Positions 1 through 63,631 of a stretch of 64,000 bases of DNA are shown piece by piece. Position 1 is the stretch's first letter, and each line of letters opens with the position of its first letter. Under the pieces are notes generated by a model that saw nothing but the letters and a program-made list of their open reading frames with translations, was not told the DNA's origin and searched no databases. The stretch is from the IMG/VR virus record IMGVR_UViG_3300032311_000675, positions 723 through 64,722 of that record; one strand, 5' to 3'. Position numbers and translations under genes: made by a program. The stretch is from a virus. Lineage: Duplodnaviria > Caudoviricetes.

Positions 1-3000
1 TTTTATCGTCGTCCTTGTCTCCCTCCATGCTTCTAAACAGAGCCATCAGAATAGCCGTTCCAACAGCTCCCTCGGTCAAGCCAGCTACGGCGTTTTCGTA
101 GTTGGTCAGATCCATAAACCTCTGGCCTTCTTTATTTGTTTTGACTGAATTCATCGCTCCGATTGCTGAATCGGCCAGTCCTACAGGGGTGAAGGCCATC
201 CCTCTTGCCAGCACGTTGTACGAGATCCGAGCGAACAAGGTAAGGCCTCGAAGGATCTGTAATCCCATCGACCCACCGAAGGCCACAGGGGCCGTGACAG
301 CTCTTGCTCCACCCTTGCTCGGGTCAAAGCCCCAGTTTTCGAGGCTCTGGGAGGCGTCGGATATGCCTTTGCTAACTTTATTCAAAGCCCGAGGGATCGC
401 CTTGCCAGCCCTCTTGAATGTAAACGGCTCGTCTTCGTTTGAGGCTACATCCTCGTTAAGGGTCTCACGAGAAGACCGCTCAACTGCAATTTTCCAAGAG
501 TCAGACCCGTACTCGCTGATTTGGTTCCGCACATAGTTAACCATCTCTTGGCCTTTAAGGCCTTTTGCCTTGGCCATTCTGAATGCGATAGATCCTACGA
601 GGGTTTCTGCCGTGAATGATTTGGCGAACTCGTCGGCCGCCAAAAGAGCCCGCAGTGGCAAGCGAATCTTCTTTCCAAAAGAGCCAGGGATCTTTGGATC
701 GTTTTCGTAAAACTTCTGATCGCCTTCGTCCAGCAGGGTCGCATCGGTATGGTCGATGTTGTAGTAGGGCTTTTCGGTATTGAATGCCAAGCGGGCATAC
801 CGCAGTCCGTTAATTACGGAAGGCCACATCGCCATGAAAGCCTCTTTTGCTTCCTCGCTGGCTCCGTTCACAACATCCGACACGCTGGCGTATGGGTTCC
901 CGATTGTTCCGTCTGGAAGCCTCACATTGAGGCCAGCCTTGCCCATGAGGTAAGACATCCCAGCCTCCACCATCCGATAGAATGGGTTAAGAGCTACGAA
1001 AGGAGTCTTCGATACGTTGGCAAGCTGGGTCGATGTGCTGGATACAAGCAGGGCAACGTGGGCTTCAAATACTGCATCACCGACGCTGGCTTGTTTGCCT
1101 TGAGACCTACGAACCATTTGCATGGCCAGTCCGACGTTGCTTGGCTTCCTCCAGTCGAATAAGGAGCTTTTGCCGTCAACATTGTGCCAATCGGACTTGC
1201 CAGAGGTGTCTGACTGCCCTGCGTAGTCAAAACCCATCGCCGCAACGATCTCTGCCAGAATCTCTTCTTTGGTGAGGGGAACCTCATCTGGATTGGCTTC
1301 GATACCCCTAGACCGCAGGGATGCTCCGTTGGCAAATGCGGTCAACTTCGCTTTCAACTGGCTTCTTGTGATCCCTTGGGTCGCAAGCTCTCCAGCCACT
1401 TGGTCAAACCTCTGCTTTGTATTTGTCTCAAGAGATTTCATCAACTGCATCACTCTGGCTGGCTTGATTCCAGCCTGTTTAGCGGCCGCCATCGGAACCA
1501 TCCCAGCCATCACAAGTCGGATCGCCTCGGCGTCCTCTTTGGACATCTGAATTGTGTCCAGAACGTCTTTAGCTGACTTGCTTTCACGGATCTTGAGCTG
1601 GGCGGTATCCCAATCCATCTGCTCAAGGCTTGTGTTTGCTTTCGCCAACTCTGCCTGTAGGGCTTCGATCTTCTTGGCAGATTCCTGTTCTAGGACTTGA
1701 TATTTATCTAACTGATTCGCCCACGCTTGATTGGCGTCTTGGTATTCCTTAATCCGAGCCTCCATATAGGCTCCCCACTTCTGCCATTGTTCGTTTGCGT
1801 TGAAGGCCTCTCCAGCTTGGCTTCTGGCTTTATCCAGTTCGGCTTGAAGGAGGCGGATCTGCTCGTCATTTGCTTCCATCGACCTCTTTTTGAGGGTGGG
1901 GGAGATGGCGTTCCTATATAGTTCATCTGAATCTGGGCTTCTTCTGTAGAGTTCAGCATTAAAGAATGACCGATTCCGCTCATCTGCCGTCATCTGGCTG
2001 TCACGCCCGATCCGCAGGGTTCTTCCAAGATTCGTTCTTTTGATGTCGTTTGCCATTGTGAGAATCGCAATTTTACGAAGTTCCTCTGGGGTCTTGGCTG
2101 TCTTGGCGTCCTCGGCGAGGGCCATGAAGACCGCCGCTTGATTGGTTGCTGATGTCTCAAGAGTGCCTTCGAGTAGATCTGCATAGAGCTGGTCTTTGTG
2201 AGTAGCGACCAAGGCTCTTGCGGCGGCCAGAACGGATGCATCGGTCTCAATGGTATCAATAGGTCGGCGCATTTCTCTGGCTACCCGCTGAACATTGCGG
2301 AACTCGTCGTTTGCAAATGGGCCAGCACTACGGACATCTTGGCCTACATAGGGTGCGCCGACTTCGTAAGGAGCGTTCTCTTCGGATGCCCTTTGGTAGG
2401 TAGCGTCGATTTCTTCGTCGGTAATGACGCTTCCAGACGCACCCAAGAATCGAGCCAATAGGTCATTGAGCGGAGCTTGTTGCGAGCCATTGTTGATCGG
2501 CTCCTCATCTGGCATACGAAGGCCTCGTGAGAACATGCCCAATGATGGGTTCTCATCTCGTAGAGTCTGAGCCTTGTCCCTCATGTCTTTCATGGCTGTA
2601 TATTCTCTTATGTCAGCCGCAGTCATTCCGTATTTATAGGGCTTATTGTTTTCTTCTATTAAGGCATCTCTTTTTAATCGTTCTATTTCCTTGTCGGCCT
2701 TCTGTACCAGTCGATCCATTTGTTGCTTTTTGGTGATCCCTCGTGAAAAGAGCGAGAGTTGCTCCATTTTGGGAACCTCGACCTCTGGTACTGCCGACTG
2801 CTGTTCTAGGACAAGATTCTCTGGCTTTGTGCTTGTCTCCACTTGCATGAGATCTGACTGGAAGGCGATCCCAGGCCATTTCTCTTCACGAGCCTTGTTC
2901 ATCAGCATCGTGTAAAGAGTTTCCTCTTGTGACGACAACTGCTGGGGAGGTATAGGACGATAGTAGCCGTCGTCTTCCTTCTGGTAGGATCCGTGCTTTT

Positions 3001-6000
3001 TCTTGTGTAGCTGTAGGAGCTTGGTCTTTAGGACATCAATGTTGTTCCTGTCCTTGTCTTGGATTTTGATGCCTCGGGCAAACAGGGTGGCCTGTTCCAG
3101 CTTTTTCTCAATGTTCCCTTGGCGAAGATTTTCAACCATCTTCATAAAGTCGAACGGCTGGCTGGATAGTTCCAGAGCGGCCGATTGCCCTTGGGTCAGA
3201 ATGGTCGGCTTGATTGCCGAGTTCTGAATCATTGCGTTCCTAGCTTCTTGAGGAAGTTCGGCCGCCAAGGCTTGCATGTACTCCTTGAGGTTTCCGTTAA
3301 TCTCAATTCCAGCCTGTCCTGGTATCGAGGCCATCTCGGTTTGGAATCGGTTGTCGCTGTACATTTCGGTGACAAATTCGTGAATGTTTCCAAGGCCGTA
3401 GTAGATCGAGCGAACCTTCTGCGGGTCAGTCTGGATGTCTGAAACCTTTGTTCTGAACATCGGTGCAGAGGCACGCACCTTATAGGAAGCGTAAAAGAGT
3501 GGTTCCAGATCCTGCTGACGGAGCTTTTCGATACCACTTGGGGTCAGAACAAGGGTCGTGTTTTGCACTCCGCTTGTTTCCATTCCTTCCAAAGCCTCCT
3601 CGTCGGTCTGGTTCAAGAACACGAAGTCTGGGGATCCCTTGGAGGCCACAAGGCTCATTCCAGAGTTCCGACCCATTGGGCGTGTTCCTTCCAGCCCTTG
3701 ATCCTTTAGGTACTTGAGGAGAGGGAAGGTATTCTCGCTGGTGATTTCGGCCTTCATGTGGATCCCGTCCTGTCCAATCGGTTCTTCGTAAGGAGCCATG
3801 TGGAGGGTCACATCGTAGGTCGAGGCCAGTCCAGTACCGAAGATTGCATCTGCCACAGGGTTTCCAGCCGTATCCTTCGATACGTTAACAGCCGCCAAAT
3901 AGGCCTTAATTAGGGCTTTGAGGGGCTTGTATCCTCCCTTGCTTCCGTTTGCCAAGGGCAGGGGATTACCCTCTGCATCCATCTCGATATCTGGGCGGTT
4001 TGCGTACTCGACAAGTCTATCCAGCTCCTTCTTGCCTGTTGCCGTACCGATTCCTTCTTTGACTAAAAGGTTGTGAGTCAGAACGTGCTTGTATTCATGG
4101 ATTGTTGTTTCAATCGGTTCCCCGCTGTTCTTGATGCCGTGTAGGCTCAAGACAACCATTCCGTTGCCTTCTTTGGCTGGCTTGTAGTACGACCTTACAA
4201 AGCTCGGATCTGGGTTGATTTCGGCTGGGACATAAAGTCCAGCGGTCATCATGCTTTGCTTTGTGTTTGGCGTAGTAAGCAATTTCGCCAAAGCTCTTTG
4301 GCTGGGCAGGGCGTCTGGCTCGTTCGCAACGGCGTTAAGGAGATCCCTAAACAACACGCTATTTCCAGCGTTGCTGTCCAGATAGTTCGCCAAACCACGA
4401 GAGAACAGGGTCATCTGACCCTTGGTTTCTTCGATAGCCTTAAAGCCCTCCATCGGGCTGGCTTCGGTAGGCTCTTCTTTTGCGGTAGGTGCTTCGACCC
4501 CTAGGAAATTTGCATATTTAGATAGCTGACGCTGGAGGCTCTGGATGTGCTTAAACACCCAGAATCTGTCTGGGGCGACTTCGCCATCGAGGTTGCCCAC
4601 GTTCCTAGACTTGTAGGCCTCGGGGGTCTCGGAGATCTGCTGATAGCTCGCCCCGCTGACATACATCATAAAGATCTTCCTGTCGGAATCGGCCAGCGAG
4701 GCCATGACTTTTTCGAGCTTGTCGTAAAGTTCCTTGTTGGATTCTGGGGCTTCTTTTTGAGCCATGTAATCGCCCACGGAGGCTTCTTCTTGTTCGACAT
4801 CGCCCTCTTCGTTGAATGTCCCGCTTATCGGAGCATCTTTTGAGATGGTCTCACGATTCTTGGCTTCCTCTTGCATCTGCTTGATGCGGTTATCAACGGC
4901 AGACAGGATGAAGTTAGGTACGTTCTCAATCAGCTCACCCTTTGTATTCTGTCCGTGGCGATGATTGATCTGTGCCTGTAGGGCGATTGCGTAGTCGTAT
5001 AGGTTCTGGTGGATCTCATCCTCGCCTAAGTTTCCAGCTTCGAGCCATCCGTCATCCGATGCCTTCATCGCCTTGTAGCGAATGTTTCTTCCGATGACTC
5101 CTTCTGGGGAGAAGTCTTTTGCGTTATCGTCGGTCAAGAATCCTTCGACGATTTGCTCTTTGGCTCGGCCTTGACCAGCTTCACGGCGTAGACCCCTTGA
5201 GCGTAGCGAGAACCCATTCTTTGGCCCTCGATACATCCAAGCATCATGTCCTTGATTGATTTTAGCCACGATCATCGTTGCGATGGCGTTGCTGTTGTCT
5301 AATGCCTCTTTCCTGTAACCCTCGTTCTTATCATCGAGGAATGCTTTGTCTGGGATGTAGAGGCTTTGCCCAGAGATCATTGACCCGTCGCTGAACACAA
5401 CAGCCCGAGGTCTGCCTTCCTCGTCGATAATGTTGTCCATTACCTTGCCGACTGGGCCAAGCAGGGATCCTTGGCCTTTGGCTACTTCTGCCTTGAGGTT
5501 TACTAGGTTGTCGGAGTTCACCCCAGCGGGCATCACTACGCCAGTTGTCTTGCCACCATCCTTGGTTGTGAAGGTGGTGACCGCCGCTGGGACATTAGCC
5601 CCGAACATAGAGGAAACGAAATTCGCCCCTGTGAGGAGATTGCCTTCGACCACAAACTGGTCTCTCTGGGTCGCATTCTGCCTTGATCTATCGTAGGTCT
5701 TGCCGAATCCGTCACCCTTACGGCTTTCGGGCATCTTTTCCTCAACGTATCTATTCCAAGAATCTGGATCTAAGGCGTTATCTCCAGTAGTAAGCACCTT
5801 GTTGATTGCCTCGTTGAATACTCGGTTCTCGATCTCAGACTCTTCCATTCCGCTCTCGTGCATCTGAACCGCCATCTCGTATGCAACTGCATTAACCTCT
5901 CGCAGTTGTTCTGGGGGAAGAGTGTCCACGCATAGAAGGCGAGGCCCGCGCATAAAAACGACCAGACCAGATCCGTCCGTGTTGCGATAAATGCCAACTG

Positions 6001-9000
6001 GCAAACTTAGTGGGTCTACGCTTGGGTCACGAGTAGGGGCTTCGTTTTCGCCAATGGGTGACTTGTCTAAAGAAATCTTGAAAGGATTAACGTGAGCAAG
6101 TTCCGATGCCTGTAGCGGGATTCGGACTTTGTTCTCAAACCCAGCCGTCTGGAGGACTAGGTACTGCCGACTTTCGGCGTGAGGGAAGCGGTTGTTCAGC
6201 TCAACACCTACGACATAGGCGGGGATCTGTTTTGTATCCTTGCCGAACCAAGCTCCCTTACCAACGAGGTCTAAGGCTCGTTCCACATTGTACTTGGTCT
6301 CGGCGTACTGCTTCCGAGACTTCTCCAAAGCCCTTACCTTCGCCAGTTGCTCCATCCGTGGGTTGCTTGAAATACGGGCCAGCTTGTCCTTTAGGACAGA
6401 GTCGCTGGCTTTTAAGAAGTCTGATACGGCTGTTTCGGCCTGTTGCTTGGCCTGTTCGAGGGTCGGGATTACCTCTGCCGAGGTCGGAGGAGGGGTCGGG
6501 TTATTGAATCGGTATTTGGCGATGCGGGCTGGTTTAGAAAATGCGTCTTCACCAGACTTGGATTCTGGAACGCTTGTGTTGAAGATCTGTAGGTCTCCAA
6601 GCGTAGTCCAAGCGACTTCGTCGGTATAGTTGGATCCATTTTCTAATGCGTTTTGAGCCTTAAGAAGCGTTGCGGATCCAAAACGCTGTACACCATCCTC
6701 AGATGGTTCGCCCGCTTTGTAAACAAGTGTGTCATTACCGCTGTTTTCGTATAAGAACTTTAGGGTTACTGGCCCAAACACCTCTCCGCCTTTTGGATTT
6801 GCATAGAAATATAATGTATCGAGTTGTTTTTTGTTTGGTAATGCCGTTTTGGCGGGCTTGTCCGAACTCGCAACCCCATACGCATCCCAAGCCTTTTCGT
6901 CAGACAGCTTCTCGGCCTTGTAATCTTTTTCTTGTGATTCCAGCTCGTAGGTTCCGTTCTGCTTGGCGAAATCAACCATCGCAACGTATTCGGCTGTGAT
7001 CTCCTCGAAGAAATGCCTCTGATCCTCGATATCCAAGATCAACGCCTTGTGGATCATCCTTCGCATCCCATCCCCTGGCTCACCCGAAGTTAGGATCTTT
7101 CGGATATCCTCAAACTTCTCGGGGAAGTTCGTTCCAGCTCTGGTGTTGTAGGCCGTTCGTAGCTCTGGTTCGTTAGCCAATACAAGGGCTACGGCGTTGT
7201 CTCCGTAGGTATTTAGCATATCCAGCCCAAGGTTCTCGCCAGCGGCCGTTGCGTCTTTACCAGTCGTCGAAGCACCAAGACGGCGCATCTTCTTCTGGGT
7301 CATCGCCATAATCCGAACTTCGGCAGGGATGTCTTCGCTGTAGATGTAGACAAGTTTGGGCGCACTTTGCTGATTGTTGCGGTTTGTTCTGCCCAAAACT
7401 TGGATTGTGTCGACGATGTCGGGGGCTGGTTGCATCACAATATGGGTTCGTGGAGCTGAACTCTTGTTGCGGGGATCGTCGTGTGCCGACAGCCCAGTCG
7501 AGCCAGTTCGGCTGACGATCAGAACCTTCGTCTGGTCATTGTTACGGAAAGCGATTAGGGAGTTTTGCTTGTCTTGGTCGGTGACGGATCTCTGCGAGAA
7601 AGCACCAGAAGGGGTGACTGCGATGTCACGACCCGATATCTCAGCACTTAGGATCTGCCGTCTTTGCAGTTCAGCACGCAAGGCATCAAATGGGCTGATC
7701 GGGAGCTTGTTGAGGGTCTCGGCATTGTCTTTGATGATTAGAGCCAGATCCTTGAACCCAGTCTCCATTAAGGAGTCGTGAAGCTCGATAGACTTCTGGC
7801 TTACCCAGTTTGGGATGTTGGACTTGCCGTTGCTCTTGTTCCAATCAATCGTGAACTCAAGGGAGGGGGCGTCGCTTTTCTCGTCTTTTGGCCCGATCTT
7901 GACTTTGTTCGTGTTGAGCTTCCTTGCGTACCGCTCCATGAAATCCTTAAAGGTGACTTTTGCGGTCTTGTCGTAGCTTTGAAGGCTTCCGCCCTCCATG
8001 ATCTCCTTGGCGTCCCGAAGGAAGGCTTCGCCTGTCGTGTCCATTGAGATGAACACCTTGCGACCAGCTTTGATTTCAGCCTCGGCCAAGTCTGCTGTGT
8101 CCTTGATTTTAGCTCCAAGAACCATGTTGGCGGCGACATTGTGGAACTGGCCAGAAAGGGGATAGATAAGGGCTTTTGCTTCCGTTCCGTCGTAGGCTTC
8201 CTGTGCATCCTGTACGAGCTGTTGGGTCAGCTTCTTCATCTTTTCGCCGATCTCGATCTGCCTCATTTCACCAAGAATTTCATTGGCGGCATTATGGGCA
8301 TCAATGACCTCTTGCTTGGCTTTGATCGGGGAGGGAATGAATGGGATCTTCTGACCCTTCCAAGTAAATCCACTCTGGAGTCGGAACATCTGCCCAGCTC
8401 GAGACAGCATACTGCTGGTCATCTGCATAAATGGATTTCCGAACCGCTTGGCGAGTCTCTCGAACTCACTTGCGGTAGGAACAGCCATTGGGATGCTGGT
8501 CTTGGGGAAGTAGGTGGCGATGTTGGCGGGGCTTTTGATAGCCGTTGCCGAAGAGAACACCGCTCCTCGTGATTTTGGAATTACGCTTCTAAAGAATTCG
8601 CCGATGGAGCTGTCTGTTCCCGCCGCATTGTGGCTCTCATCCAAGATGAAGATCGCCCTGTCTGCGATTGCATTAAGGGCAGGGATAACATCCTTTTTAG
8701 TTACCGAGGAGATCTGGGCATAGGTCGTAAAGACTGCGTTATGCTCACTTGGCATCTTGCCAGTCTGTGCGGTGAGTCGGAGCTTCTGGATCGGGTTCTT
8801 CATTGTAACTGGGCGACCCTTGCTACGCATCGAACTCCAGTTGTTATTTGTGATGAGAGGCTTGATCTGCCCCTCGAACCCTACGTCCTCGATGTCATCC
8901 AGCATCGCTGGGTACAAAGGCTCGGATTTGGTTACAAAAACAGGGATTAGGCCTTTTTTGAGGGCATAAACGGCCATGATTGACCCAACGATCCGACCCT

Positions 9001-12000
9001 TACCAACACCCATCTCGTGTCCGATAGTAAGGCTTTTGCCTTTCTCAATCTGATTGATGGAAAGGGCGATGGTCTCCAAGGCTTCTGCCGAGAGCCTTTC
9101 CTCGCCGTCATCCCGCTTGAAGATCTTATCGACAGGGATCCCGATCATCTTTGAGACGTACTGCGGGATCGGGCCGACCTCTTTGACCAGCTCGTTAATA
9201 GCAGAGGTCTGTTCGGGTGCGAGGTTGGCAGGGGCTTGTAGCCCTAAAGAGTAGTAGCCATCAATCTTCTTGGATTCTTCTTCTCCAACTGGAGTCCAGC
9301 TCTCTTGTAGCTCGGCCTTTTCTTGGTCTTTGTCGATCTGCTCTTCACGAGGATCTGGGGCAGGGAGGCCTCTGGAGCTTAATCTGGTTTTAGATAGGGT
9401 CTTCTCGACTGCCTTTTGAGCGGCACTTTGAATTGTCTCTCCAAATGAATTCTCTGACGCAATTATTGGAACTCGGTTCCCAAATATATCCGTCTCGCCC
9501 ATGTCCTTGAGGTCTTGAATCTTGGCTTCCAGCTCTGAGGCCAGATTGTTTAGGTAGCTCGATAGCTTTGCGCTGGAATCTCTGAAATCGTAAATAGGCT
9601 GGAAGACGTCGGCGGAAGTCTGGTCGAGGATATTTTCCGCAAGTCCAGGGATCTGGCTTCTGTTGTTCTCGACGAACGACTGCCAATCCTTGGGAGTGTT
9701 TTCGCCACCAGACCTCTTGGCCTCCAGATAGGCCTGTAGTGACTTGGCAATTGGAACAAGCGGGTCGAGCTGGGATGCTTTTTCTGCACCTAGAACCTCT
9801 GTGGCTATCTGCCGTAATGAAACAAGTCGGGTAACTGATTTCGTTAGGGCGGCGGCCAAAGTCTTTACCCCAGCGTTGCTGTTCTCTGGGTCGGTAATGG
9901 CGGAGATGATGATCTTTTCGGAGTCTGTAATCTTGCCGTTATTGGAGCTGGCAATCGCATCAGCGAGAAGGGCGGAGGTTACTCGATCCTTGAAGGCCTT
10001 GGTAAAGCTCTCGTCGTTGTTCCTGTACTGCTGTGGGGATCCAAATATCTCAAAGAACTTCTGCTGAATCGCAACATTTTCTGGGGTTTCCGATAGATCT
10101 CCGTTTTCGTTTTGCTTGATATCTCGGAGTTCTGGGTTGTCCTGTATTTCACGAGCATCCGCAACCGCAAGCTCCTCTGTGGCTAAAGTTCCAGCGTTTG
10201 CCCTTACGGCTAGTCGCCTCAAGAACTGCTTTGGAGTTTTGTTGACGCCAAGCCCAGTTGCCGTCTTGTTGGACTCTTCAAAGCTCGCCATTAGATCCAT
10301 CTCGGTGACCACAATCGGCATCTTCATAGATCGGATCTGTTCGGCCATTTCTGGGAAAACCTCCATCAGCTTGGCTCGATAGGCGGCCGCCCGCTCTGGG
10401 TAGCGACGGAACATTTCCATCATTGCCTTGATTCGTCCGTGACCGCTTACGATTTTGTTTTCAGCAGTAAGGATGGGTGCGCCGTCTCCAGTTGAAGTCC
10501 CTGGCATCGCTTTATCTGGATCCCAGTTGCGAGCCATTGTTTCGATAAGTTCTTTGTACGCCTTTCGATCTTTTCGGTTTCTGGGTTGGATGTCCGTGCC
10601 TTCCATGTCCTTGGCCTCGGTGGCCTCGATGATTTTGGGCGTCCCGATAACTGTTGACCCAGTAAAGCCCTGCGTGAATGCCTTGATCGTATTCTTCTTG
10701 GCTGTTGGGGCGGGTTTGTTTTCGCCCATCATCTTTTTGGTGATTTCAGATTGCGGTACTTCAATCGTGTCCTCGTCCGAGGTCTTGGCGATTTCTTTGA
10801 TTGAGGCTCGGATATCCATGCCAGCCAGTTTGGCCTCCGCCGAGTTCATGCCTGTCGCATCCATAACGAACTTCATGTAGTCAGCATCTCTGCGACTGGG
10901 GTTCGACTGGGCTATGATGTACAAGGCCTTGTCGATGTCGTTATGGAAGTTTAGGGCAAACTGATTTGCTCCGTAAGCGTAACGAGGGCTTGCTCCAGCT
11001 AGGTCTCTAGGAAGTCTTGGAAGCTCGGTTCTTGGTGCTGGCGGAGCAGGGGGAGCAGGGGGAGCAGGGGGAGCGGGGGGAGCGGGGGGAGCGGGCGGAG
11101 CTGGTGGCTCTGGGGGAGTTGGAGGTGCGGGTGGCTCTGATTGTTCCGTGCTTTGATCCGATTCTGCTGTGGCAGGGGCGGTAGGCCTTGGATTTGCTCC
11201 AGTTGAGGGAAGGTTAGGCTGAACTAGGCCACCAGACCTCTTGCCTGTAATGGACGCTGGCGGGACTCCGAGTCCAGCCCAGTCCACCTTCTTGCCTTTG
11301 AGTACATCTTGTATCTTGTTCAGGAGGTCATCCAGTTCTGCTCCGACTTGCGGATTTGCGCTGGAAAGAGCCTTACGCATCCGACTCAAGGCCTTGTACA
11401 CCGACATGATGTACTTTTTGATGGAATTGATTAAGTCACGGACGCTCGATTCAGACTTCTGCATCGTTGTTGTGTCTTTGCCTTGGGCGGAGGCTCTTAG
11501 GTCAATTCTGCTTTCCGTAAGCCCAGACTTGCTTTCGATCTGACCTAATTGACGGAGCATTTCGCTCATTACAACCATCGTCTTGGTGTCGCTTCCACCC
11601 AAGAAGTCCGATATTTCCTCCATGCTCATAGAGGTCGGCATATCTGGGTTGTATAAAGAGATGGAGGAGACCAGCGCAGTTGCTACTTGTGTGTCGCTTT
11701 TGCCTACCTCCAAAATCTTGTTGAAGAGGTCACTCCGCCTCTTGATGTGATAAGGGGCGTACTCCTCTGGCTTTAGTCCGAGGGCTTTAGCCTCAAGGTA
11801 GGAAGACGCAAAGTCGCCAACGTGCAGAAGTTCCTCGTGGAACGCTCTGTTGTTTATCTCTGGGTCTACGGAATCTTGGAAAGCAAACTGGTTTGGATCC
11901 ACCCTTAATGTAAGAGAGCCGTCCTCATTTGGGACGACTTGCATTGAGGTCGATTGGCCTGTGATTTCACCTTCCTCGTAGCCGACCTTAATCCCATCCA

Positions 12001-15000
12001 CCGACAGGCCTTTGGCAATTTCCGAGGTCTTTTCTTTGGCTGACCGCATTCGCTCGATCGTTGTTGTTCCAGCCAGCCGATTCCCAGTCCTCTGGAGGAG
12101 CTTGCTTGGTGAGTTTTCGAGAAGGGGCTTCTCAACCTTTTCTGGTTCGTCTGAGGACCCCTCCGTAGTTGGCATCCCGAGGCTCTCAACTCTTGCCTCG
12201 ATGGCAGGGATCATGCTCTTGATGTTTTCGTAATCGATGATTGAGGGGACGTTCTTAAAGAAATCTTCGGCAAAACTTGGATTTAGGATCGTCGCTCCGT
12301 CTTCTCGTGTCTGGAAGATAGGCATTCCCTTGATCTTGTAAGACCCCATCTCCTCGGTTATCTGGCCTCCAGTAATGATGTAAGAGGCCGCTTTTGCCGC
12401 CTCTCTCTGGCTCAATTCACTTTTGGATGCAGGGACGTCAGATAGCTGGCTGATCTCATTACGGGTGTTGTTTTGGGCTTTTGCCAATGCAGAGATTGTT
12501 TCAGCAACGTGCGCTCTTACTGCGAAGTACTCCATCTCGTCGGCGTTCTCCTTGAGCAAATCCAGCTTGTTGCCGATATTGATAAGCCTGTTTGCGGGCT
12601 TGAGGGCTTCGGGTTCTGGTTCGCTCTTAGATAGTTCGCTCTTAGATTCAGTTCTCCCCTTTTCGATTGCTTGAAGAACTTTTTGTATATTTTGTCGTAG
12701 TCTCTCGGGCGACTCGGGTAGATCCTTTTCAACTGGTGTTACCCCGATTTCACCTAAACCCTTATTAATTGAATTTCCAGACCCAACTGGTTTTCCGCTT
12801 GTTTGTGTGCCTAATTGTGCGTCCAATCTCTCTGCCATCGCTTTTAACTCTGGGGAACCATAATGAGCGTTTATTTGTTCCTGAGTTCCCTTGTTGATCC
12901 AACCATCTTTACCAATACCAAAAACTGGATACCATTTATCTGCCTTTACGTTTTTCTTACCAGCTTTTCCAGTTGATCTGTAAAACGGAATTTTAACCCC
13001 GTTAACATCGACAACCACCATCTCTCGATCCGCAAAACGAACTACTTTTGACTTACCGCTAGTCTTCTTTACAGATTGAGTAGCCTCATCCCATTCTAGA
13101 TTATTTTCGTAAGATATTTCTTCAAGGTTAACTTCTGGCGTTAATGTAGGAGCGACAGCTTCTGCAACTTGCTCAGCTAATGGCCTTGCGTTAAGGACAA
13201 CATCAGAAGGGGATCCAAATCCTTGGCTGTTTGCCCAAGCCTCCCATCCTCCTGGTTCAATGTCTGCCGTGGCTTTTTGAAGCTCGAACGATGCTCCTTC
13301 TTGGGCTTCGTCAGTTGCACCGATCGTGTTAATGAACTCCTGTCCGAACATGACGCTCTTCTCGGCTCCCGCTGTTACTTGAACTGCAAGACCTCCAGTT
13401 GCGGCCGCAATGATAATGCTCCGTGCCACTTCCTCGTTTGGGTCTCTGGCGGGGTCATAGTCTGCAATCTCAATGGCAATCTGATTGAGCCATCTCTGCT
13501 GGAGTCCTTCGGTAACGCCTTCTACTGCTCCACCCTTGATTGACGGCCACAAAAACTTTGACGCAGACAGGGCATATTTAGCCAATAGGTTTCTGGCTTG
13601 GGTGGCTGGGAGCTTGGCGAGGGCGAGCTTTTTGCCCAATCCCAAGGTGAACTTGTCTGAAATTGTATCAATCCCTGCGGCGGGCAGAGCGTAGGTCAAT
13701 GCGGCAACGTGGCTCTGGCTAGGGGTTAATACTATTCCAGTCTTTTTCTGGGCTTCCTCTTGGTCGGCGATTGCCTCGGCATACAGAGACGAGACATTCC
13801 CAAGATATCCAACAGCACCAGACCCAATAGGCCCAAGCGGAGCGGAGGCAACGTAGGTCATCATCTGAGCTGGAAGCTCTGAAATGCCCTTGATAACACC
13901 GCCTGTTACGCTTGCGTTAAAATCATCATCGGTAGGGAATGTCTGGTCGAGCCAATCCCTGTTCTCTTTGGCCGCTTGAGATGCGTTAAGGAAAAACTCT
14001 CCACCGCTACCACCAAGCTGGCGTCCGACCAGTGCGTAGAACCCGCTGGCTTGATCTTGGTTAAACCGAATCGACCCCTTGATCGCTTGGTTAATGGTGT
14101 TCCCAATAAATCCTCGTTTGTCCTTCGGTGCTTTCTGGATCTCCTTGCTGGCCTCGATGGCTACTTTTGTTGGGATCTCTTTGTTCTTCGCCTTTTCCAT
14201 CAGCGAGTCCGTTGGAGCTTCTGGACTGATATCCGCTGGCTTTGGCTTTACCGCTTCGCCAGTTAGGTATTTCCTCTGATTAACAGCTCCAGCGGTCTTG
14301 TTTGCCTCATAGTCAATCTTGGCCTTTTGGCTTTCCGCCTCCTGTTTAGCACTTTCAATAGCATCTTTTTCGAGAGACTGGGCTGATTCGAGGGACTGGT
14401 TGCCCATAATGACGCTTGGCAATTTTCCTTTGAGGTCGGCCTCAAGGACATCAATAGCCCTGCTGGATGCGTCAATTTCATCTTGTGAAGCCCCAGATTT
14501 GATAAGCTCATTGTGTTGGGCAATGGCTAGATCTGTCTTTTTCCGCAACAGAGTCCATACAGCTCTAGCGTTGACGGCGGGCTTTTTAATTTCGTCGGTG
14601 TATTCGGCAAGCTTCTGTTTGCGGTTCTCAAGGTTGGCATCGACTGATTTCTTAACTTGTTCTGCCTCTTGTCGAACTCCCTTGGCTTCCTCTGATTCTG
14701 GGAGGCCAATCATCATTCCGTTAACTACGGATGGGATCATGCCCTCGAGGGCTTTGGGAAGGGCAGGGGCGTCTGGGTCGAGATTGCCTAAATTGAGGGA
14801 CGATGCTGACTTTTGTAGCTCTGCATATATCGGATCATCCTTGGGGTCATTTGACTTGGTGCCGTCAGCTTTGACAATGCCTTGCTTGCGAACGTCTTGA
14901 CCTCTTTGCATGAGGGCGTTGAAGGTTGCTTCTTTTTGCTTTTGCTTCGCAAGTTCCGCTTGGAGCATTTTGTGTTTCGCAAGTTGCGATTCTTTTTCAT

Positions 15001-15850
15001 TTAACTCCTTTGTGCGGGCTTGCTCTTCTTCGGCCATTCTTTTGGCGTATTCCGCTCTTTGATCGTCTGTTGCGTCAGCGGATATTGGAGGCGGGTTGTT
15101 TTTAGCTGTTTCTATTTGGCTCTTAAGATCTCCAATCCCAGCCCGCAACTCGTCTTCGGTTGCCTTTAGGCCTCTGAATGCCTCGCCGTAAATCTTGTTG
15201 TCTCTGCTTGTTCTCTCATCCCTAGCAATCGTGCGAATGGCCTCGTCATCCGAGTCTACCAGTTCATCGATACTCCCGATCCTCTTGGATTTGCGGGTTG
15301 CGTCACGCTCTGGGGTTGCTCCCTCGACTTGGGGTTTGCCCATAGGGACTCGGTAGATTGCGTTGGGGTCTTCGCCGTACTCCTTGTTGCCAGTAGTGAT
15401 CTTAACAGGGACTTCTGGCTTATTGATCGGGCTTCCGAATTCGTCAAACTTTGTTGTGCCGCCTAGCTCGTTTGGAGTTTCCCCAGATCCCCATTCCAGA
15501 GTCGGCATTCCTTTGTTGTCAGATGTGACCTTTGGCTCAACTCCTCCACCAGCTACTTGTCGATGTCTTACGCCAGCGGTATCGAGCGTCCTTTCGGTCT
15601 GGGCATTGGAGCGATCCTCCGAAGCCTTGGCTTCTTGCTTGGCGATCTGGTTAAGTTTGTTTGCATCGCTCCTTGAAATGTATGTCGGGGCAGGGGCGGG
15701 CTTCGGTTGGCTTGCTTCCTGTTCCTCTTGTCGCTTCTTGCGAATCCGAGCCAATAATTTGTCTGCTTCGTCTGGTTCGGGGCCAGCGAAGGCAGTTCCC
15801 TCGATGCGGTTAGGGCGTACCGATGGGTTTAACTCGCTGGGCAAGCCCAT
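1..15850 (-). CDS. Giant polyvalent (DarB/LPD-type) virion-associated polyprotein, >5280 aa, 3' end runs off the window
   Basis: ATG at 15850 lies 3 nt after the upstream stop. Hand translation at many points from 15850 to base 1 stays in one frame (ends ...AILMALFRSMEGDKDDDK). The ORF track shows no long minus ORF here, as expected if there is no stop in the window. Contains helicase, ParB-like, zincin and sigma-like motifs. Confidence 0.9.
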   Translation of the reverse strand, partial: MGLPSELNPSVRPNRIEGTAFAGPEPDEADKLLARIRKKRQEEQEASQPKPAPAPTYISRSDANKLNQIAKQEAKASEDRSNAQTERTLDTAGVRHRQVAGGGVEPKVTSDNKGMPTLEWGSGETPNELGGTTKFDEFGSPINKPEVPVKITTGNKEYGEDPNAIYRVPMGKPQVEGATPERDATRKSKRIGSIDELVDSDDEAIRTIARDERTSRDNKIYGEAFRGLKATEDELRAGIGDLKSQIETAKNNPPPISADATDDQRAEYAKRMAEEEQARTKELNEKESQLAKHKMLQAELAKQKQKEATFNALMQRGQDVRKQGIVKADGTKSNDPKDDPIYAELQKSASSLNLGNLDPDAPALPKALEGMIPSVVNGMMIGLPESEEAKGVRQEAEQVKKSVDANLENRKQKLAEYTDEIKKPAVNARAVWTLLRKKTDLAIAQHNELIKSGASQDEIDASSRAIDVLEADLKGKLPSVIMGNQSLESAQSLEKDAIESAKQEAESQKAKIDYEANKTAGAVNQRKYLTGEAVKPKPADISPEAPTDSLMEKAKNKEIPTKVAIEASKEIQKAPKDKRGFIGNTINQAIKGSIRFNQDQASGFYALVGRQLGGSGGEFFLNASQAAKENRDWLDQTFPTDDDFNASVTGGVIKGISELPAQMMTYVASAPLGPIGSGAVGYLGNVSSLYAEAIADQEEAQKKTGIVLTPSQSHVAALTYALPAAGIDTISDKFTLGLGKKLALAKLPATQARNLLAKYALSASKFLWPSIKGGAVEGVTEGLQQRWLNQIAIEIADYDPARDPNEEVARSIIIAAATGGLAVQVTAGAEKSVMFGQEFINTIGATDEAQEGASFELQKATADIEPGGWEAWANSQGFGSPSDVVLNARPLAEQVAEAVAPTLTPEVNLEEISYENNLEWDEATQSVKKTSGKSKVVRFADREMVVVDVNGVKIPFYRSTGKAGKKNVKADKWYPVFGIGKDGWINKGTQEQINAHYGSPELKAMAERLDAQLGTQTSGKPVGSGNSINKGLGEIGVTPVEKDLPESPERLRQNIQKVLQAIEKGRTESKSELSKSEPEPEALKPANRLINIGNKLDLLKENADEMEYFAVRAHVAETISALAKAQNNTRNEISQLSDVPASKSELSQREAAKAASYIITGGQITEEMGSYKIKGMPIFQTREDGATILNPSFAEDFFKNVPSIIDYENIKSMIPAIEARVESLGMPTTEGSSDEPEKVEKPLLENSPSKLLQRTGNRLAGTTTIERMRSAKEKTSEIAKGLSVDGIKVGYEEGEITGQSTSMQVVPNEDGSLTLRVDPNQFAFQDSVDPEINNRAFHEELLHVGDFASSYLEAKALGLKPEEYAPYHIKRRSDLFNKILEVGKSDTQVATALVSSISLYNPDMPTSMSMEEISDFLGGSDTKTMVVMSEMLRQLGQIESKSGLTESRIDLRASAQGKDTTTMQKSESSVRDLINSIKKYIMSVYKALSRMRKALSSANPQVGAELDDLLNKIQDVLKGKKVDWAGLGVPPASITGKRSGGLVQPNLPSTGANPRPTAPATAESDQSTEQSEPPAPPTPPEPPAPPAPPAPPAPPAPPAPPAPPAPRTELPRLPRDLAGASPRYAYGANQFALNFHNDIDKALYIIAQSNPSRRDADYMKFVMDATGMNSAEAKLAGMDIRASIKEIAKTSDEDTIEVPQSEITKKMMGENKPAPTAKKNTIKAFTQGFTGSTVIGTPKIIEATEAKDMEGTDIQPRNRKDRKAYKELIETMARNWDPDKAMPGTSTGDGAPILTAENKIVSGHGRIKAMMEMFRRYPERAAAYRAKLMEVFPEMAEQIRSMKMPIVVTEMDLMASFEESNKTATGLGVNKTPKQFLRRLAVRANAGTLATEELAVADAREIQDNPELRDIKQNENGDLSETPENVAIQQKFFEIFGSPQQYRNNDESFTKAFKDRVTSALLADAIASSNNGKITDSEKIIISAITDPENSNAGVKTLAAALTKSVTRLVSLRQIATEVLGAEKASQLDPLVPIAKSLQAYLEAKRSGGENTPKDWQSFVENNRSQIPGLAENILDQTSADVFQPIYDFRDSSAKLSSYLNNLASELEAKIQDLKDMGETDIFGNRVPIIASENSFGETIQSAAQKAVEKTLSKTRLSSRGLPAPDPREEQIDKDQEKAELQESWTPVGEEESKKIDGYYSLGLQAPANLAPEQTSAINELVKEVGPIPQYVSKMIGIPVDKIFKRDDGEERLSAEALETIALSINQIEKGKSLTIGHEMGVGKGRIVGSIMAVYALKKGLIPVFVTKSEPLYPAMLDDIEDVGFEGQIKPLITNNNWSSMRSKGRPVTMKNPIQKLRLTAQTGKMPSEHNAVFTTYAQISSVTKKDVIPALNAIADRAIFILDESHNAAGTDSSIGEFFRSVIPKSRGAVFSSATAIKSPANIATYFPKTSIPMAVPTASEFERLAKRFGNPFMQMTSSMLSRAGQMFRLQSGFTWKGQKIPFIPSPIKAKQEVIDAHNAANEILGEMRQIEIGEKMKKLTQQLVQDAQEAYDGTEAKALIYPLSGQFHNVAANMVLGAKIKDTADLAEAEIKAGRKVFISMDTTGEAFLRDAKEIMEGGSLQSYDKTAKVTFKDFMERYARKLNTNKVKIGPKDEKSDAPSLEFTIDWNKSNGKSNIPNWVSQKSIELHDSLMETGFKDLALIIKDNAETLNKLPISPFDALRAELQRRQILSAEISGRDIAVTPSGAFSQRSVTDQDKQNSLIAFRNNDQTKVLIVSRTGSTGLSAHDDPRNKSSAPRTHIVMQPAPDIVDTIQVLGRTNRNNQQSAPKLVYIYSEDIPAEVRIMAMTQKKMRRLGASTTGKDATAAGENLGLDMLNTYGDNAVALVLANEPELRTAYNTRAGTNFPEKFEDIRKILTSGEPGDGMRRMIHKALILDIEDQRHFFEEITAEYVAMVDFAKQNGTYELESQEKDYKAEKLSDEKAWDAYGVASSDKPAKTALPNKKQLDTLYFYANPKGGEVFGPVTLKFLYENSGNDTLVYKAGEPSEDGVQRFGSATLLKAQNALENGSNYTDEVAWTTLGDLQIFNTSVPESKSGEDAFSKPARIAKYRFNNPTPPPTSAEVIPTLEQAKQQAETAVSDFLKASDSVLKDKLARISSNPRMEQLAKVRALEKSRKQYAETKYNVERALDLVGKGAWFGKDTKQIPAYVVGVELNNRFPHAESRQYLVLQTAGFENKVRIPLQASELAHVNPFKISLDKSPIGENEAPTRDPSVDPLSLPVGIYRNTDGSGLVVFMRGPRLLCVDTLPPEQLREVNAVAYEMAVQMHESGMEESEIENRVFNEAINKVLTTGDNALDPDSWNRYVEEKMPESRKGDGFGKTYDRSRQNATQRDQFVVEGNLLTGANFVSSMFGANVPAAVTTFTTKDGGKTTGVVMPAGVNSDNLVNLKAEVAKGQGSLLGPVGKVMDNIIDEEGRPRAVVFSDGSMISGQSLYIPDKAFLDDKNEGYRKEALDNSNAIATMIVAKINQGHDAWMYRGPKNGFSLRSRGLRREAGQGRAKEQIVEGFLTDDNAKDFSPEGVIGRNIRYKAMKASDDGWLEAGNLGEDEIHQNLYDYAIALQAQINHRHGQNTKGELIENVPNFILSAVDNRIKQMQEEAKNRETISKDAPISGTFNEEGDVEQEEASVGDYMAQKEAPESNKELYDKLEKVMASLADSDRKIFMMYVSGASYQQISETPEAYKSRNVGNLDGEVAPDRFWVFKHIQSLQRQLSKYANFLGVEAPTAKEEPTEASPMEGFKAIEETKGQMTLFSRGLANYLDSNAGNSVLFRDLLNAVANEPDALPSQRALAKLLTTPNTKQSMMTAGLYVPAEINPDPSFVRSYYKPAKEGNGMVVLSLHGIKNSGEPIETTIHEYKHVLTHNLLVKEGIGTATGKKELDRLVEYANRPDIEMDAEGNPLPLANGSKGGYKPLKALIKAYLAAVNVSKDTAGNPVADAIFGTGLASTYDVTLHMAPYEEPIGQDGIHMKAEITSENTFPLLKYLKDQGLEGTRPMGRNSGMSLVASKGSPDFVFLNQTDEEALEGMETSGVQNTTLVLTPSGIEKLRQQDLEPLFYASYKVRASAPMFRTKVSDIQTDPQKVRSIYYGLGNIHEFVTEMYSDNRFQTEMASIPGQAGIEINGNLKEYMQALAAELPQEARNAMIQNSAIKPTILTQGQSAALELSSQPFDFMKMVENLRQGNIEKKLEQATLFARGIKIQDKDRNNIDVLKTKLLQLHKKKHGSYQKEDDGYYRPIPPQQLSSQEETLYTMLMNKAREEKWPGIAFQSDLMQVETSTKPENLVLEQQSAVPEVEVPKMEQLSLFSRGITKKQQMDRLVQKADKEIERLKRDALIEENNKPYKYGMTAADIREYTAMKDMRDKAQTLRDENPSLGMFSRGLRMPDEEPINNGSQQAPLNDLLARFLGASGSVITDEEIDATYQRASEENAPYEVGAPYVGQDVRSAGPFANDEFRNVQRVAREMRRPIDTIETDASVLAAARALVATHKDQLYADLLEGTLETSATNQAAVFMALAEDAKTAKTPEELRKIAILTMANDIKRTNLGRTLRIGRDSQMTADERNRSFFNAELYRRSPDSDELYRNAISPTLKKRSMEANDEQIRLLQAELDKARSQAGEAFNANEQWQKWGAYMEARIKEYQDANQAWANQLDKYQVLEQESAKKIEALQAELAKANTSLEQMDWDTAQLKIRESKSAKDVLDTIQMSKEDAEAIRLVMAGMVPMAAAKQAGIKPARVMQLMKSLETNTKQRFDQVAGELATQGITRSQLKAKLTAFANGASLRSRGIEANPDEVPLTKEEILAEIVAAMGFDYAGQSDTSGKSDWHNVDGKSSLFDWRKPSNVGLAMQMVRRSQGKQASVGDAVFEAHVALLVSSTSTQLANVSKTPFVALNPFYRMVEAGMSYLMGKAGLNVRLPDGTIGNPYASVSDVVNGASEEAKEAFMAMWPSVINGLRYARLAFNTEKPYYNIDHTDATLLDEGDQKFYENDPKIPGSFGKKIRLPLRALLAADEFAKSFTAETLVGSIAFRMAKAKGLKGQEMVNYVRNQISEYGSDSWKIAVERSSRETLNEDVASNEDEPFTFKRAGKAIPRALNKVSKGISDASQSLENWGFDPSKGGARAVTAPVAFGGSMGLQILRGLTLFARISYNVLARGMAFTPVGLADSAIGAMNSVKTNKEGQRFMDLTNYENAVAGLTEGAVGTAILMALFRSMEGDKDDDK
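3090..4390 (-). other. Zincin (MPTase-like) metallopeptidase module 2 of the polyprotein
   Basis: TTIHEYKHVLTH (~4100) and distal NIHEFVTEMYSDNRFQ (~3380). Confidence 0.75.
4410..5188 (-). other. Sigma70/ECF-like module of the polyprotein
   Basis: EDEIHQNLY...PNFILSAVDNRIKQM (region 2-like), ISKDAPIS (SLDxP-like), LYDKLEKVMASLADSDRKIFMMYVSGASYQQISE...VFKHIQSLQRQL (region 4 HTH-like). Confidence 0.7.
5210..9360 (-). other. Strawberry-notch-type SF2 helicase module of the polyprotein
   Basis: Walker A IGHEMGVGKGR (~9000), FTTYAQI, ILDESHNAAG (~8635), FSSAT, STGLSAH, IQVLGRTNRNNQ. Confidence 0.85.
9420..10700 (-). other. ddrB-like ParB-superfamily module of the polyprotein
   Basis: IQPRNRKD...DGAPILTAENKIVSGHGRIKAM matches the QPRxR / GAP / SGNGR pattern. 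Confidence 0.7.
11037..11135 (-). repeat. (PPA)n 9-bp tandem repeat encoding a proline linker
   Basis: ggagcaggg/ggagcgggg units translate as PPAPPAPPAPPAPPAPPAP. Confidence 0.9.
11540..12000 (-). other. Divergent zincin-like metallopeptidase module 1 of the polyprotein
   Basis: RAFHEELLH at 11848-11822 with a downstream VVMSEMLRQ helix. Confidence 0.5.
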
Positions 15851-17339: not shown

Positions 17340-17350
17340 GTGCGACGCAT
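17340..17350. promoter_or_regulatory. Late-type palindrome GTGCGACGCAT
   Basis: Centre 17345 is 55 bp upstream of ATG 17290; TTGAGG at -34. Confidence 0.7.
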
Positions 17351-45888: not shown

Positions 45889-46205
45889 AAGACATGACAG
45901 AAGACACGAAACACGTTCCATCCATTGCCGAGATGGCTAGTGCGGCCGCCGAGATAACTTGGAGAATTATGAGCAATGGGTCGGCCAAGTCGGCGTTTGG
46001 AGAATGGCTACATAAGGATAAGCCCACCTACGACTACCATATTTGTAGGGCAATCAAACACGCTGTAACTGCCCAGCAACAGATCCACCTCAACGAACCC
46101 CAGCCCGACAATAATGGCGAGACAGCCATTGACCACCTTGAGAGAACTATCGTTCGTGGTCTCTTTGCTTGGTTTCAGCTCAAGAGGAAAATGCCTAGAC
46201 TATGA
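45879..46205 (+). CDS. Hypothetical protein
   Basis: ORF in the operon. Confidence 0.6.
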   Translation: MAMKDMTEDTKHVPSIAEMASAAAEITWRIMSNGSAKSAFGEWLHKDKPTYDYHICRAIKHAVTAQQQIHLNEPQPDNNGETAIDHLERTIVRGLFAWFQLKRKMPRL

Positions 46206-47260: not shown

Positions 47261-47523
47261 AAAGCGAGTGGGCTGTAGCCTTACAGAAACATTTAAGGGA
47301 GAAAGTTGAGCCACCTCCCGCTGGGTGGAAGTCGGTCAAGCAGATCTCCGAAGAGCTTGGCAAATCAGCTTGCCACACCAGCAAGGTAATCAAAAAGATG
47401 ATTAAGCTTGGTCTTGCCGAAACAAAGAGCTACCGATGCTTAATGTCTGAAAATGGTAAAAAAGCACCTTACGGCAGAATGATTCCGCACTACCGCCTGT
47501 TGCCAAAGGCTAAATCTCCTTAA
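47257..47523 (+). CDS. Winged-HTH-like protein
   Basis: PPAGWKSVKQISEELGKS. Confidence 0.6.
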   Translation: MKSEWAVALQKHLREKVEPPPAGWKSVKQISEELGKSACHTSKVIKKMIKLGLAETKSYRCLMSENGKKAPYGRMIPHYRLLPKAKSP

Positions 47524-63597: not shown

Positions 63598-63631
63598 ATT
63601 CGATTTCAACCATCAATGGCGAGGCGTGCGA

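Follow-up and report, generated by a model that had tools for sequence, protein, structure and literature searches.

Recurrent linker motifs as candidate processing sites in a giant phage polyvalent protein with an embedded HExxH segment

Polyvalent proteins and the giant gene of an uncultured phage

Polyvalent proteins with zincin-like metallopeptidase (MPTase) domains were described by Iyer, Burroughs, Anand, de Souza and Aravind in 2017, who proposed that the peptidase releases domains of these proteins and drew an analogy to RNA-virus polyproteins (PMC5512222). Self-processing of polyvalent proteins is thus a proposal of 2017 and not new here; the self-processing reading given for this locus in a preliminary description is partly supported by the comparative evidence given below, and its viral-polyprotein analogy already stands in the accessible text of that paper. 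The same text defines no cleavage-site consensus, the words 'cleavage site' occurring there only in the title of a reference, and in the literature that we searched the self-cutting idea is still a prediction without defined sites. In phage P1, DdrB, encoded in the darA operon, joins a DdrB-type ParB domain to a C-terminal MPTase and is, by the accessible account, proteolytically processed before head packaging (PMC5512222). The virion RNA polymerase of phage N4, gp50, is reportedly packaged unprocessed despite its MPTase domain (PMC5512222, as far as its text was accessible), which counts against the self-processing reading. A more recent case is phi24B gp47, a polyvalent protein of 2,811 aa with LPD domains, among them LPD38, and a metallopeptidase domain; proteomics detected it in virions, a role as ejection protein was proposed for it, and the accessible part of the preprint reports no processing of it (bioRxiv 10.64898/2026.04.10.717836). 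To that extent gp47 is a precedent for virion packaging of a polyvalent protein. A likeness in working principle only is offered by the MARTX toxins, secreted by bacteria, whose effector modules are exchanged among strains and, once delivered, are cut apart at their linkers by an embedded cysteine protease that a host cofactor activates; no sequence relation is expected in this analogy.

The window (the whole stretch of 64,000 nucleotides analysed here) comes from an uncultured phage with a circular 64.6-kb contig, whose ends overlap by 123 nt and of which 722 nt lie outside the window. One minus-strand ORF of 5,605 aa spans the circular junction: its main part, residues 1–5283, occupies positions 2–15850 (start codon at 15848–15850), and its last in-window part, including the stop, is reached across the junction at 63632–64000. 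The gene sits among late and virion genes with portal-terminase packaging, between the large terminase subunit gene upstream (17350–19095, minus strand) and an SU10-type portal gene directly downstream (61372–63609, minus strand), with genes for a capsid protein and an SU10 adaptor nearby. The giant protein is probably made late, carried inside the capsid and ejected together with the DNA, packaging being read solely from the position of the gene.

Several unrelated enzymatic and binding domains are combined in this one polypeptide, all on the minus strand. Pfam finds a DdrB-like ParB domain (PF18763, E 5e-16) at 10301–10642 and a Strawberry-notch-type SF2 helicase at 6941–9100, the latter from an AAA_34 match at 8393–9100 that scores 25.9 bits, slightly under the cut-off of 27, together with Helicase_C_4 at 6941–7645 (E 8e-25). 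Segment C holds a weak sigma-70 region-4-like HTH at 4628–4723 (Pfam E 0.0024, below cut-off; phrog_1740, E 0.0048). Because the ParB domain, the helicase, the weak sigma-like HTH and an HExxH segment all lie in it, the giant ORF is a phage-type polyvalent protein in the sense of Iyer et al. It shares with the proteins of that study its huge multi-activity polypeptide, a DdrB-type ParB domain, a Strawberry-notch-type SWI2/SNF2 ATPase, an embedded HExxH and a gene among the late and virion genes of a portal-terminase phage; it differs, relative to the accessible text, in an explicit repeated linker motif, in lineage variants of that motif at fixed positions and in an array of small exchangeable units. 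P1 DdrB, compared by description, is far smaller; a single processing event is reported for it, and it has no repeated motif. N4 gp50 is likewise giant and, in the text available, is carried in a podovirus capsid, whereas the window protein bears no sign of an RNA polymerase domain. New here are the explicit consensus of the sites, the way it changes from lineage to lineage and the array of units.

Seven copies of one linker motif

The seven copies of [LM]x[SA]RG[LI] listed in the preliminary description were all recovered in place, in a single minus-strand frame. Site 1, LSSRGL (aa 2157–2162; 9365–9382), lies between the ParB and helicase domains, and site 2, LRSRGL (aa 3549–3554; 5189–5206), at the end of the helicase segment. 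Site 3, LFSRGL (aa 3815–3820; 4391–4408), separates the HTH segment from the peptidase segment, which ends in site 4, LFARGI (aa 4256–4261; 3068–3085). Site 5, LFSRGI (aa 4367–4372; 2735–2752), is where the 111-aa segment E ends and a variable unit region starts; site 6, MFSRGL (aa 4439–4444; 2519–2536), ends the 72-aa unit F (2519–2734, minus strand); and site 7, LRSRGI (aa 4845–4850; 1301–1318), precedes the C-terminal segment H of 755 aa. A consensus site thus recurs between functional units, on both flanks of the putative protease included. The placement at domain boundaries claimed earlier is borne out by Pfam coordinates for the ParB/helicase junction; for the other sites it draws on alignment between lineages and on those parts of a weak AlphaFold model that have low confidence.

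Residue shuffles of the giant ORF give a mean of 0.04 copies, with an analytic expectation of 0.044, and none of 20,000 reaches seven; nor does any for the core [SA]RG[LI], with seven copies against 0.42 expected. The earlier pattern had been defined after seeing the copies, and the recurrence could on that account be put down to chance and a pattern set after the fact. Scans that use no pattern recover the motif as well: among exact 4-mers SRGL ranks behind only the PPAP, PAPP and APPA words that stem from a proline-rich linker, and in a reduced alphabet the 6-mer 'l-f-s-+-G-l' (4 versus 0.03) is the top 6-mer free of proline. The shuffles, these scans, and the conservation of the motif in relatives or its replacement there by other enriched motifs at the same positions effectively refute the explanation by chance. 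Among the other 77 of the 78 ORFs called on the genome, the motif is absent save for one loose match, IGARGL.

Site conservation in close and distant relatives

In 14 close relatives of 73–89% overall identity, all seven sites are kept at homologous positions. The core [SA]RG[LI] is present at site 1 in 12 of the 12 relatives that span it, at sites 2–6 in 14 of 14 and at site 7 in 13 of 13. Between site 5 and a conserved anchor, the 15 proteins carry one to three units of 17–103 aa from several unrelated families, and they differ there by whole units, each with its own motif copy at its end. One relative, P0006, equals another, P0005, plus a 17-aa unit ending in LRARGL, and P0010 combines the 72-aa unit of the window with a 97-aa unit; in relatives, other units stand in place of unit F or alongside it.

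Since the motif borders units that are exchanged among relatives, it might be a junction scar or a DNA-level recombination signal of module shuffling with no role in the protein. Such an origin is highly improbable. As the preliminary description had observed, the codons vary among copies (AGA, AGG, CGT or CGA for Arg; TCC, TCA or TCT for Ser; GGC, GGT or GGG for Gly), so that conservation is at the protein level and little DNA homology is left to recombine on. Junctions that do not vary keep the position of the site across lineages of about 30% identity while its sequence has changed, and some variable inserts, such as aa 2987–3106 inside the helicase segment, have no motif at their edges.

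An exhaustive phmmer search for distant relatives found two proteins of about 5,500 aa, P0016 and P0017, that are about 30% identical to the window protein and carry motifs of their own. The motif of the P0016 lineage is [LMI]xAQRI, and AQRI is the most enriched 4-mer of P0016 (7 versus 0.107 expected) as well as top-enriched in five IMG/VR loci of the same lineage (4–8 versus 0.084–0.096). P0017 has [ST]LxARx[LI]; its [ST]LxAR part occurs 7 times versus 0.40, a count reached in 0 of 1,000 shuffles. Four of the seven window sites fall, in P0016 and P0017 alike, within 0–3 alignment columns of the motif proper to that lineage, and five of the seven within 40 columns in each, a coincidence reached in none of 20,000 random placements; the P0017 motif was set after looking at the aligned sites, and its positional test is therefore partly circular. 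Sites 2 and 4 lie within 0–1 columns of motifs in both proteins. These data argue strongly that the inter-module sites are functional and have changed together with the rest of the protein. A motif that drifts while its positions stay fixed fits a co-evolving, phage-encoded enzyme better than a conserved host enzyme, with the reservation that all parts of the protein diverged among the three lineages, so that the co-variation is not specific to the peptidase. In the window protein, KRSGGL (aa 1537–1542; 11225–11242, minus strand), mentioned earlier as a weaker copy and indeed present, aligns with 'EVAQRS' of the AQRI lineage and is a possible degenerate site; LNARPL (aa 886–891; 13178–13195, minus strand) resembles the P0017-type motif and matches the relaxed pattern [LMI]x[SA]Rx[LIVM].

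Because the sites are kept in 14 relatives, because units bring their own copy and because distant lineages have motifs at the same positions, a role of the motifs as functional sites separating modules fits the comparative evidence. That these are sites of proteolytic processing is, on this evidence, probable.

The HExxH segment and the putative cutting enzyme

Segment D (aa 3821–4261; 3068–4390, minus strand), bracketed by one motif site on each side, is the candidate for the cutting enzyme. The zincin seen in it by the preliminary description holds as far as the motif: HEYKH (4085–4099) is an HExxH that is invariant across lineages, and 22 of 24 examined sequences have HE[YFI][KVI]H, the remaining two being short partial matches. 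All three lineages keep the His, Glu and His of this motif without change, as well as two Glu residues some 240 positions downstream. These Glu (E338 and E342, numbered within the segment) are candidates for the third zinc ligand of a gluzincin-type enzyme; they lie in a predicted helix, where the sequence reads TEMYSD in the window (3353–3370) and 'AETMSN' or 'SETFSN' in the other lineages, a stretch that may resemble the E-x-x-S-D signature of thermolysin-type enzymes. The zincin fold drew no support from Pfam, PHROGs or the PDB: Pfam gave no match to segment D at E up to 1, PHROGs only an unannotated family of 2,639 positions (E 0.0023) and the PDB nothing significant by sequence or by profile, and a language-model search with the peptidase segment was uninformative. 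Both AlphaFold models place HExxH in a predicted helix, as would befit a zincin, at low confidence. They are poor (mean pLDDT 45.9 and 37.9), so that no fold search was meaningful and the zincin fold of segment D stays putative. In the 921-aa model, all five of the sites covered fall in stretches with pLDDT below 50, between better-modelled blocks; as 583 of its 921 residues have pLDDT below 50, this is weak evidence (about 0.1 by chance).

A second peptidase had been suspected at HEELLH (11822–11839, minus strand), an HExxxH variant, and this suggestion is not supported. Its putative metal-binding His residues are not both conserved: the first His is kept in three of 13 pattern-matched sequences and is N, G, S, Q or D elsewhere, with one sequence beyond those 13, P0013, also having it. 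Since this residue is unconserved in relatives, HEELLH is probably not a catalytic zincin motif.

If the sites are cut, the agent could be another protease, either a maturation protease of the phage that escaped recognition or one of the host that acts once the protein has been ejected. Many tailed phages, T4 and phiKZ among them, trim internal head proteins with a prohead protease, several ORFs of the structural module are without family assignment (for example, one of 329 aa upstream of the capsid gene and one of 481 aa upstream of the giant gene), and segment D has no peptidase match by profile or model. Prohead proteases such as T4 gp21 and phiKZ gp175 are separate serine proteases whose short consensus sites direct trimming of capsid-borne proteins, a point of likeness, but they usually cut capsid and scaffold proteins too; the window motif is confined to one protein, and neither the capsid and portal ORFs nor the others called have it. 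Scans of the 20 larger ORFs with Pfam, and of ten of them with PHROGs as well, turned up no other protease, and three motifs in three lineages are not what a host enzyme predicts. We consider cutting by another protease unlikely.

The motifs might instead stay uncut and act, in flexible linkers, as short linear motifs for binding a partner, for instance the sliding clamp of the host or the interior of the capsid or portal. The consensus of the beta-clamp-binding pentapeptide is QL[SD]LF, and three of the seven sites read Q-x-[ST]-L-F just before [SA]RG; all three Q..[LM]F words of the protein are at motif sites (3 versus 0.9 expected), and P0016 has six such words versus 1.2 expected, two of them at its sites. 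The other four sites lack the Q..LF part, so that Q-x-x-[LM]-F is not a feature of each site, and the invariant part, [SA]RG[LI], lies outside the clamp motif. Binding also leaves unexplained the one motif copy at the end of every inserted unit and the sites on both flanks of the HExxH segment, and we regard it as rather unlikely.

Under the processing reading, which we regard as the best one, the modules of the polyvalent protein are joined by short linkers with the signature hydrophobic-x-[S/A]-R-G-[L/I], and these linkers would most likely be cut by the HExxH (zincin-type) segment of the protein itself. The cuts would release at least eight pieces: an N-terminal piece of about 2,160 aa with the ParB domain, the helicase, an HTH/sigma region-4-like piece, the peptidase, a 111-aa piece, the swappable 72-aa unit, a coiled-coil-rich piece of 406 aa and the C-terminal piece of 755 aa. 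From sequence we infer cleavage, the zincin as the cutter, the position of the scissile bond and virion packaging alike, and for the statement as a whole, with the embedded zincin as the cutting enzyme, we hold the chances to be about even. A doubtful extension would have each phage lineage carry its own private pair of zincin and cut-site signature, evolving in concert, in an injected, self-dismantling effector array that might yield at least eight proteins in the first moments of infection; the swappable units of 17–103 aa could then be small anti-defence or host-takeover peptides, and cuts at sites of the Q-x-[ST]-L-F type could leave some fragments with exposed clamp-binding-like tails that direct them to the replisome of the host.

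The family supplies explicit candidate sites and three natural site variants at the same positions, and with them a testable handle on the idea of 2017. Small early effectors might be sought among the short units that lie between sites. As for the C-terminal segment H, none of the Pfam LPD families or peptidase models matched the giant protein at the thresholds used, and the LPD38 model gave no match to this segment at E up to 1; a language-model search with segment H of a close relative (locus L003) returned LPD38-bearing clusters (score 0.96, 25 of 30 matches), a likeness that we treat as a lead only. Processing would allow many proteins to be delivered compactly by a 65-kb phage, from a single gene. 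The giant gene by itself takes up about a quarter of the genome.

The linker motif and the protein that carries it

The hexapeptide [LM]x[SA]RG[LI] recurs along one giant ORF. All seven copies listed in the preliminary description were found where it had placed them, each in the frame of this ORF, with starts at residues 2157, 3549, 3815, 4256, 4367, 4439 and 4845 (sites 1-7, N- to C-terminal); a weaker copy, KRSGGL, starts at residue 1537. In 20,000 shuffles of the protein the motif appeared on average 0.04 times and a count of seven was never reached. Pattern-free scans also recover the motif words: SRGL and, in a reduced alphabet, the 6-mer equivalent of LFSRGL are the most over-represented after PPAP, PAPP and APPA, which stem from a proline-rich linker. 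Chance recurrence was rejected on both grounds. Save for one loose match, the motif is absent from the other 77 called ORFs of the genome. As a feature of this phage polyvalent protein, the recurrence is genuine and statistically robust. Codon usage differs among the copies, as had been claimed, and recombination scars were rejected as their origin because these differences do not fit them. The Arg-Gly codons yield GAGG in four of the seven copies and AGGGG in two, and one copy (CGT GGT) carries neither type of word. Internal translation starts, considered in place of cleavage, were rejected, since no start codon recurs consistently at an appropriate distance.

The ORF is encoded on the minus strand, where it occupies window positions 2-15850 and continues beyond the left edge. 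The ends of the 64,722-nt contig, of which the window comprises bases 723-64722, overlap by 123 nt, so that the genome is a circle of 64,599 nt. Followed across the circle junction, the ORF has 5,605 codons, stops at window position 63632 and accounts for about 26% of the genome. Upstream on that strand lie the large terminase gene (17350-19095) and a 481-aa ORF without a family match, and directly downstream a gene for an SU10-type portal (61372-63609); in the vicinity are genes for a capsid protein (53428-54990), an SU10-type adaptor and, on the minus strand, a CHAP-domain protein (48444-49091) whose CHAP match is below Pfam's cut-off. The phage is a tailed one, and the giant gene sits within its late, structural part. 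Elsewhere the genome encodes a group-1 glycosyltransferase (46202-47260, plus strand), a calcineurin-like phosphoesterase (47510-48256, minus strand) and an ORF with a weak polysaccharide-deacetylase-like match (21045-22724, minus strand); no tRNA genes were found on it.

Within the protein, Pfam recognizes a DdrB-like ParB domain (aa 1737-1850) and, as parts of a Strawberry-notch-type helicase, Helicase_C_4 (aa 2736-2970) and AAA_34 (aa 2251-2486), the latter just below its cut-off. There follow segment C (aa 3555-3820), for which two libraries each gave a weak, sub-threshold match to sigma-70 region 4, and segment D (aa 3821-4261), which contains HEYKH. The roughly 1,500 N-terminal residues and segments E (111 aa), F (a 72-aa unit), G (406 aa) and H had no matches in Pfam or PHROGs. 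Domain set and gene context agree with those of phage-type polyvalent proteins in the available text of Iyer et al. 2017 (PMC5512222). Segment H, the C-terminal 755 aa (window 2-1300 and 63632-64000), has hydrophobic stretches. In a language-model search, the same segment of a close relative (locus L003, 14009-16267) fell near clusters bearing LPD38, a domain of phage polyvalent proteins, with a score of 0.96; since the Pfam LPD38 model itself does not match segment H, this likeness is a lead only. An assemblin-like C-terminal peptidase in this segment found no support in Pfam and PHROG searches. The proline-rich PPAPPAPP linker (aa 1572-1607; window 11030-11137, minus strand) joins the N-terminal region to the ParB part and varies in length and sequence among close relatives. 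At aa ~580-900 (window ~13150-14100, minus strand), inspection by eye found one of two unrelated versions in each close relative, both rich in Gly and hydrophobic residues.

Exchangeable units and lineage-specific motifs

A word-index search retrieved 14 giant relatives with 73-89% identity. The [SA]RG[LI] core is kept at site 1 in 12 of 12 relatives that span it, at sites 2 to 6 in all 14, and at site 7 in 13 of 13 that span it; changes within the motif are confined to S/A, L/I, F/Y and similar exchanges. The stretch from site 5 to the conserved start of segment G consists, in each of the 15 proteins, of one to three units, 17 to 103 aa in length. The window protein has its 72-aa unit here, a 94-103-aa unit of another family is present in 13 of the 15, P0010 has units of both types, and P0011 and P0013 carry additional unrelated ones. 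P0006 equals P0005 plus a 17-aa unit with LRARGL at its end, and one further relative has a 76-aa unit ending in IGSRGL. Units were split at the motif, so that the pieces end in it by construction; the relatives differ, however, by whole units with one motif copy each, and neighbouring units are therefore always separated by a copy, independently of the splitting. Speaking against a simple link between variability and motif is an insert within the helicase segment (aa 2987-3106; window 6533-6892, minus strand) that is hypervariable: it lacks the motif at its edges, and in its place the relatives hold unrelated inserts of very different length, none of them motif-flanked.

With the peptidase segment (segment D) as query, phmmer was run exhaustively against 1.84 billion representatives and returned five proteins only. 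Two of these, the distant P0016 and P0017, have lengths of about 5,500 aa; pairwise identities among them and the window protein are all about 30%, and SRG[LI] enrichment is seen in neither P0016 nor P0017. In P0016, a pattern-free scan gave AQRI as by far the top 4-mer (7 copies versus 0.107 expected), and the same word ranks first in each of five IMG/VR loci of this lineage, with 4 to 8 copies versus 0.084-0.096 expected; the copies follow [LMI]xAQRI. P0017 shows TLHARPL, SLSARQI, TLLARQI, SLFAREL, SLMAREA and SLQARDI at the aligned sites. Its pattern [ST]LxAR, which is post hoc because it was found by inspecting these sites, occurs 7 times versus 0.40 expected, a count reached by none of 1,000 shuffles. 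Reduced to hexamers, all three variants fit hydrophobic-x-[A/S]-(R or Q)-x-hydrophobic.

The variants also share their positions. Aligning four sequences places window sites 3549, 4256, 4439 and 4845 within 0 to 3 columns of the own-lineage motif of P0016 as well as of P0017; five of the seven sites lie at most 40 columns from such a motif in each, and not one of 20,000 random placements did as well. Common to all three lineages is a site spacing of about 1,400-1,500, about 265-273 and 441-464 residues, followed by a variable stretch and an interval of 406-502 residues. The weak copy KRSGGL has EVAQRS as its aligned counterpart in the AQRI lineage and may hence be a degenerate site. One member of that lineage, locus L013, lacks an AQRI site that the other five keep between two units after the peptidase; the total spacing there is retained (265 versus 177+85 residues).

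A further lineage, above all one without HExxH, was not found in IMG/VR or the metagenome collection, and word-index searches for new lineages gave close relatives or contig fragments only. Locus L024, a candidate, proved to be the N-terminal part of P0016, and tblastn against 50,697 phage records produced only three weak helicase matches.

The putative peptidase and the case for processing

In segment D, H-E-x-x-H and two Glu residues about 240 residues downstream are invariant across the three lineages and fall in predicted helices, in AlphaFold2 models of low confidence; a motif site stands at each end of the segment. The models, with mean pLDDT 45.9 for aa 3540-4460 (16 aligned sequences) and 37.9 for the segment alone (9 sequences), are too poor for fold comparison, and a deep alignment is precluded by the small size of the family. 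By sequence or profile, the segment had no usable match in Pfam, PHROGs or the PDB, nor did family and homology searches yield one for segments G and H; for segment D, a language-model atlas gave a weak LPD23 lead only (18% of one cluster's members). P0018, a protein of 1,270 aa without HExxH, aligns with the insert region of segment D in nine separate stretches (E 1e-13), so this insert appears to constitute a separate domain that forms repeats.

The suggestion that HEELLH marks a second peptidase was not borne out: its first His is kept in 3 of 13 pattern-matched sequences, the others having N, G, S, Q or D, and was seen in one sequence beyond these. The HEELLH motif does not form a conserved metal site. 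That the linker motifs lie outside folded domains is borne out only weakly: in the larger model, the five sites covered all fall within low-confidence stretches that separate better-folded blocks, but low confidence applies to 583 of its 921 residues.

A motif that is kept under divergence, brought by every inserted unit, confined to one protein and replaced by another at the same positions is what would be expected of recognition sites for a co-evolving enzyme, and we consider it probable that the motifs are processing sites. Segment D is the only candidate within the protein for the enzyme that recognizes them; for the full mechanism, in which the embedded zincin makes the cuts, we put the chances at about even. 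Another protease might cut instead, and this is possible because several structural ORFs have no family assignment; none was recognized among 20 larger ORFs scanned.

Self-processing, and the analogy with RNA-virus polyproteins, have already been proposed in the available text of Iyer et al. (PMC5512222), which also notes that the N4 virion polymerase, a protein with such a peptidase domain, is packaged whole. In that text the words 'cleavage site' occur only within a reference title, and no polyvalent protein with a defined cleavage consensus was found in the literature searched; the supplement of Iyer et al. may list the family. The novel elements are the consensus of the sites, the three lineage variants of this consensus at unchanged positions, and the array of small units that can be exchanged. 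The processing model is directly testable. As to where the chain would be cut, a position before the invariant last Leu/Ile would fit, given that zincins often prefer a hydrophobic residue at P1'; cleavage after the small residue of the motif is equally possible.

One point favours the motifs serving in binding rather than processing: Q-x-[ST]-L-F, which resembles the clamp-binding pentapeptide, precedes the core at three window sites, and Q..[LM]F is over-represented in P0016 too (6 versus 1.2 expected). It is absent from the other four sites, however, and the clamp-binding motif does not include the invariant core. In addition, Q-x-x-L-F words are found outside the linker motifs, at aa 1735, 2454, 4213 and 4888 of P0016 and aa 3501 of P0017.
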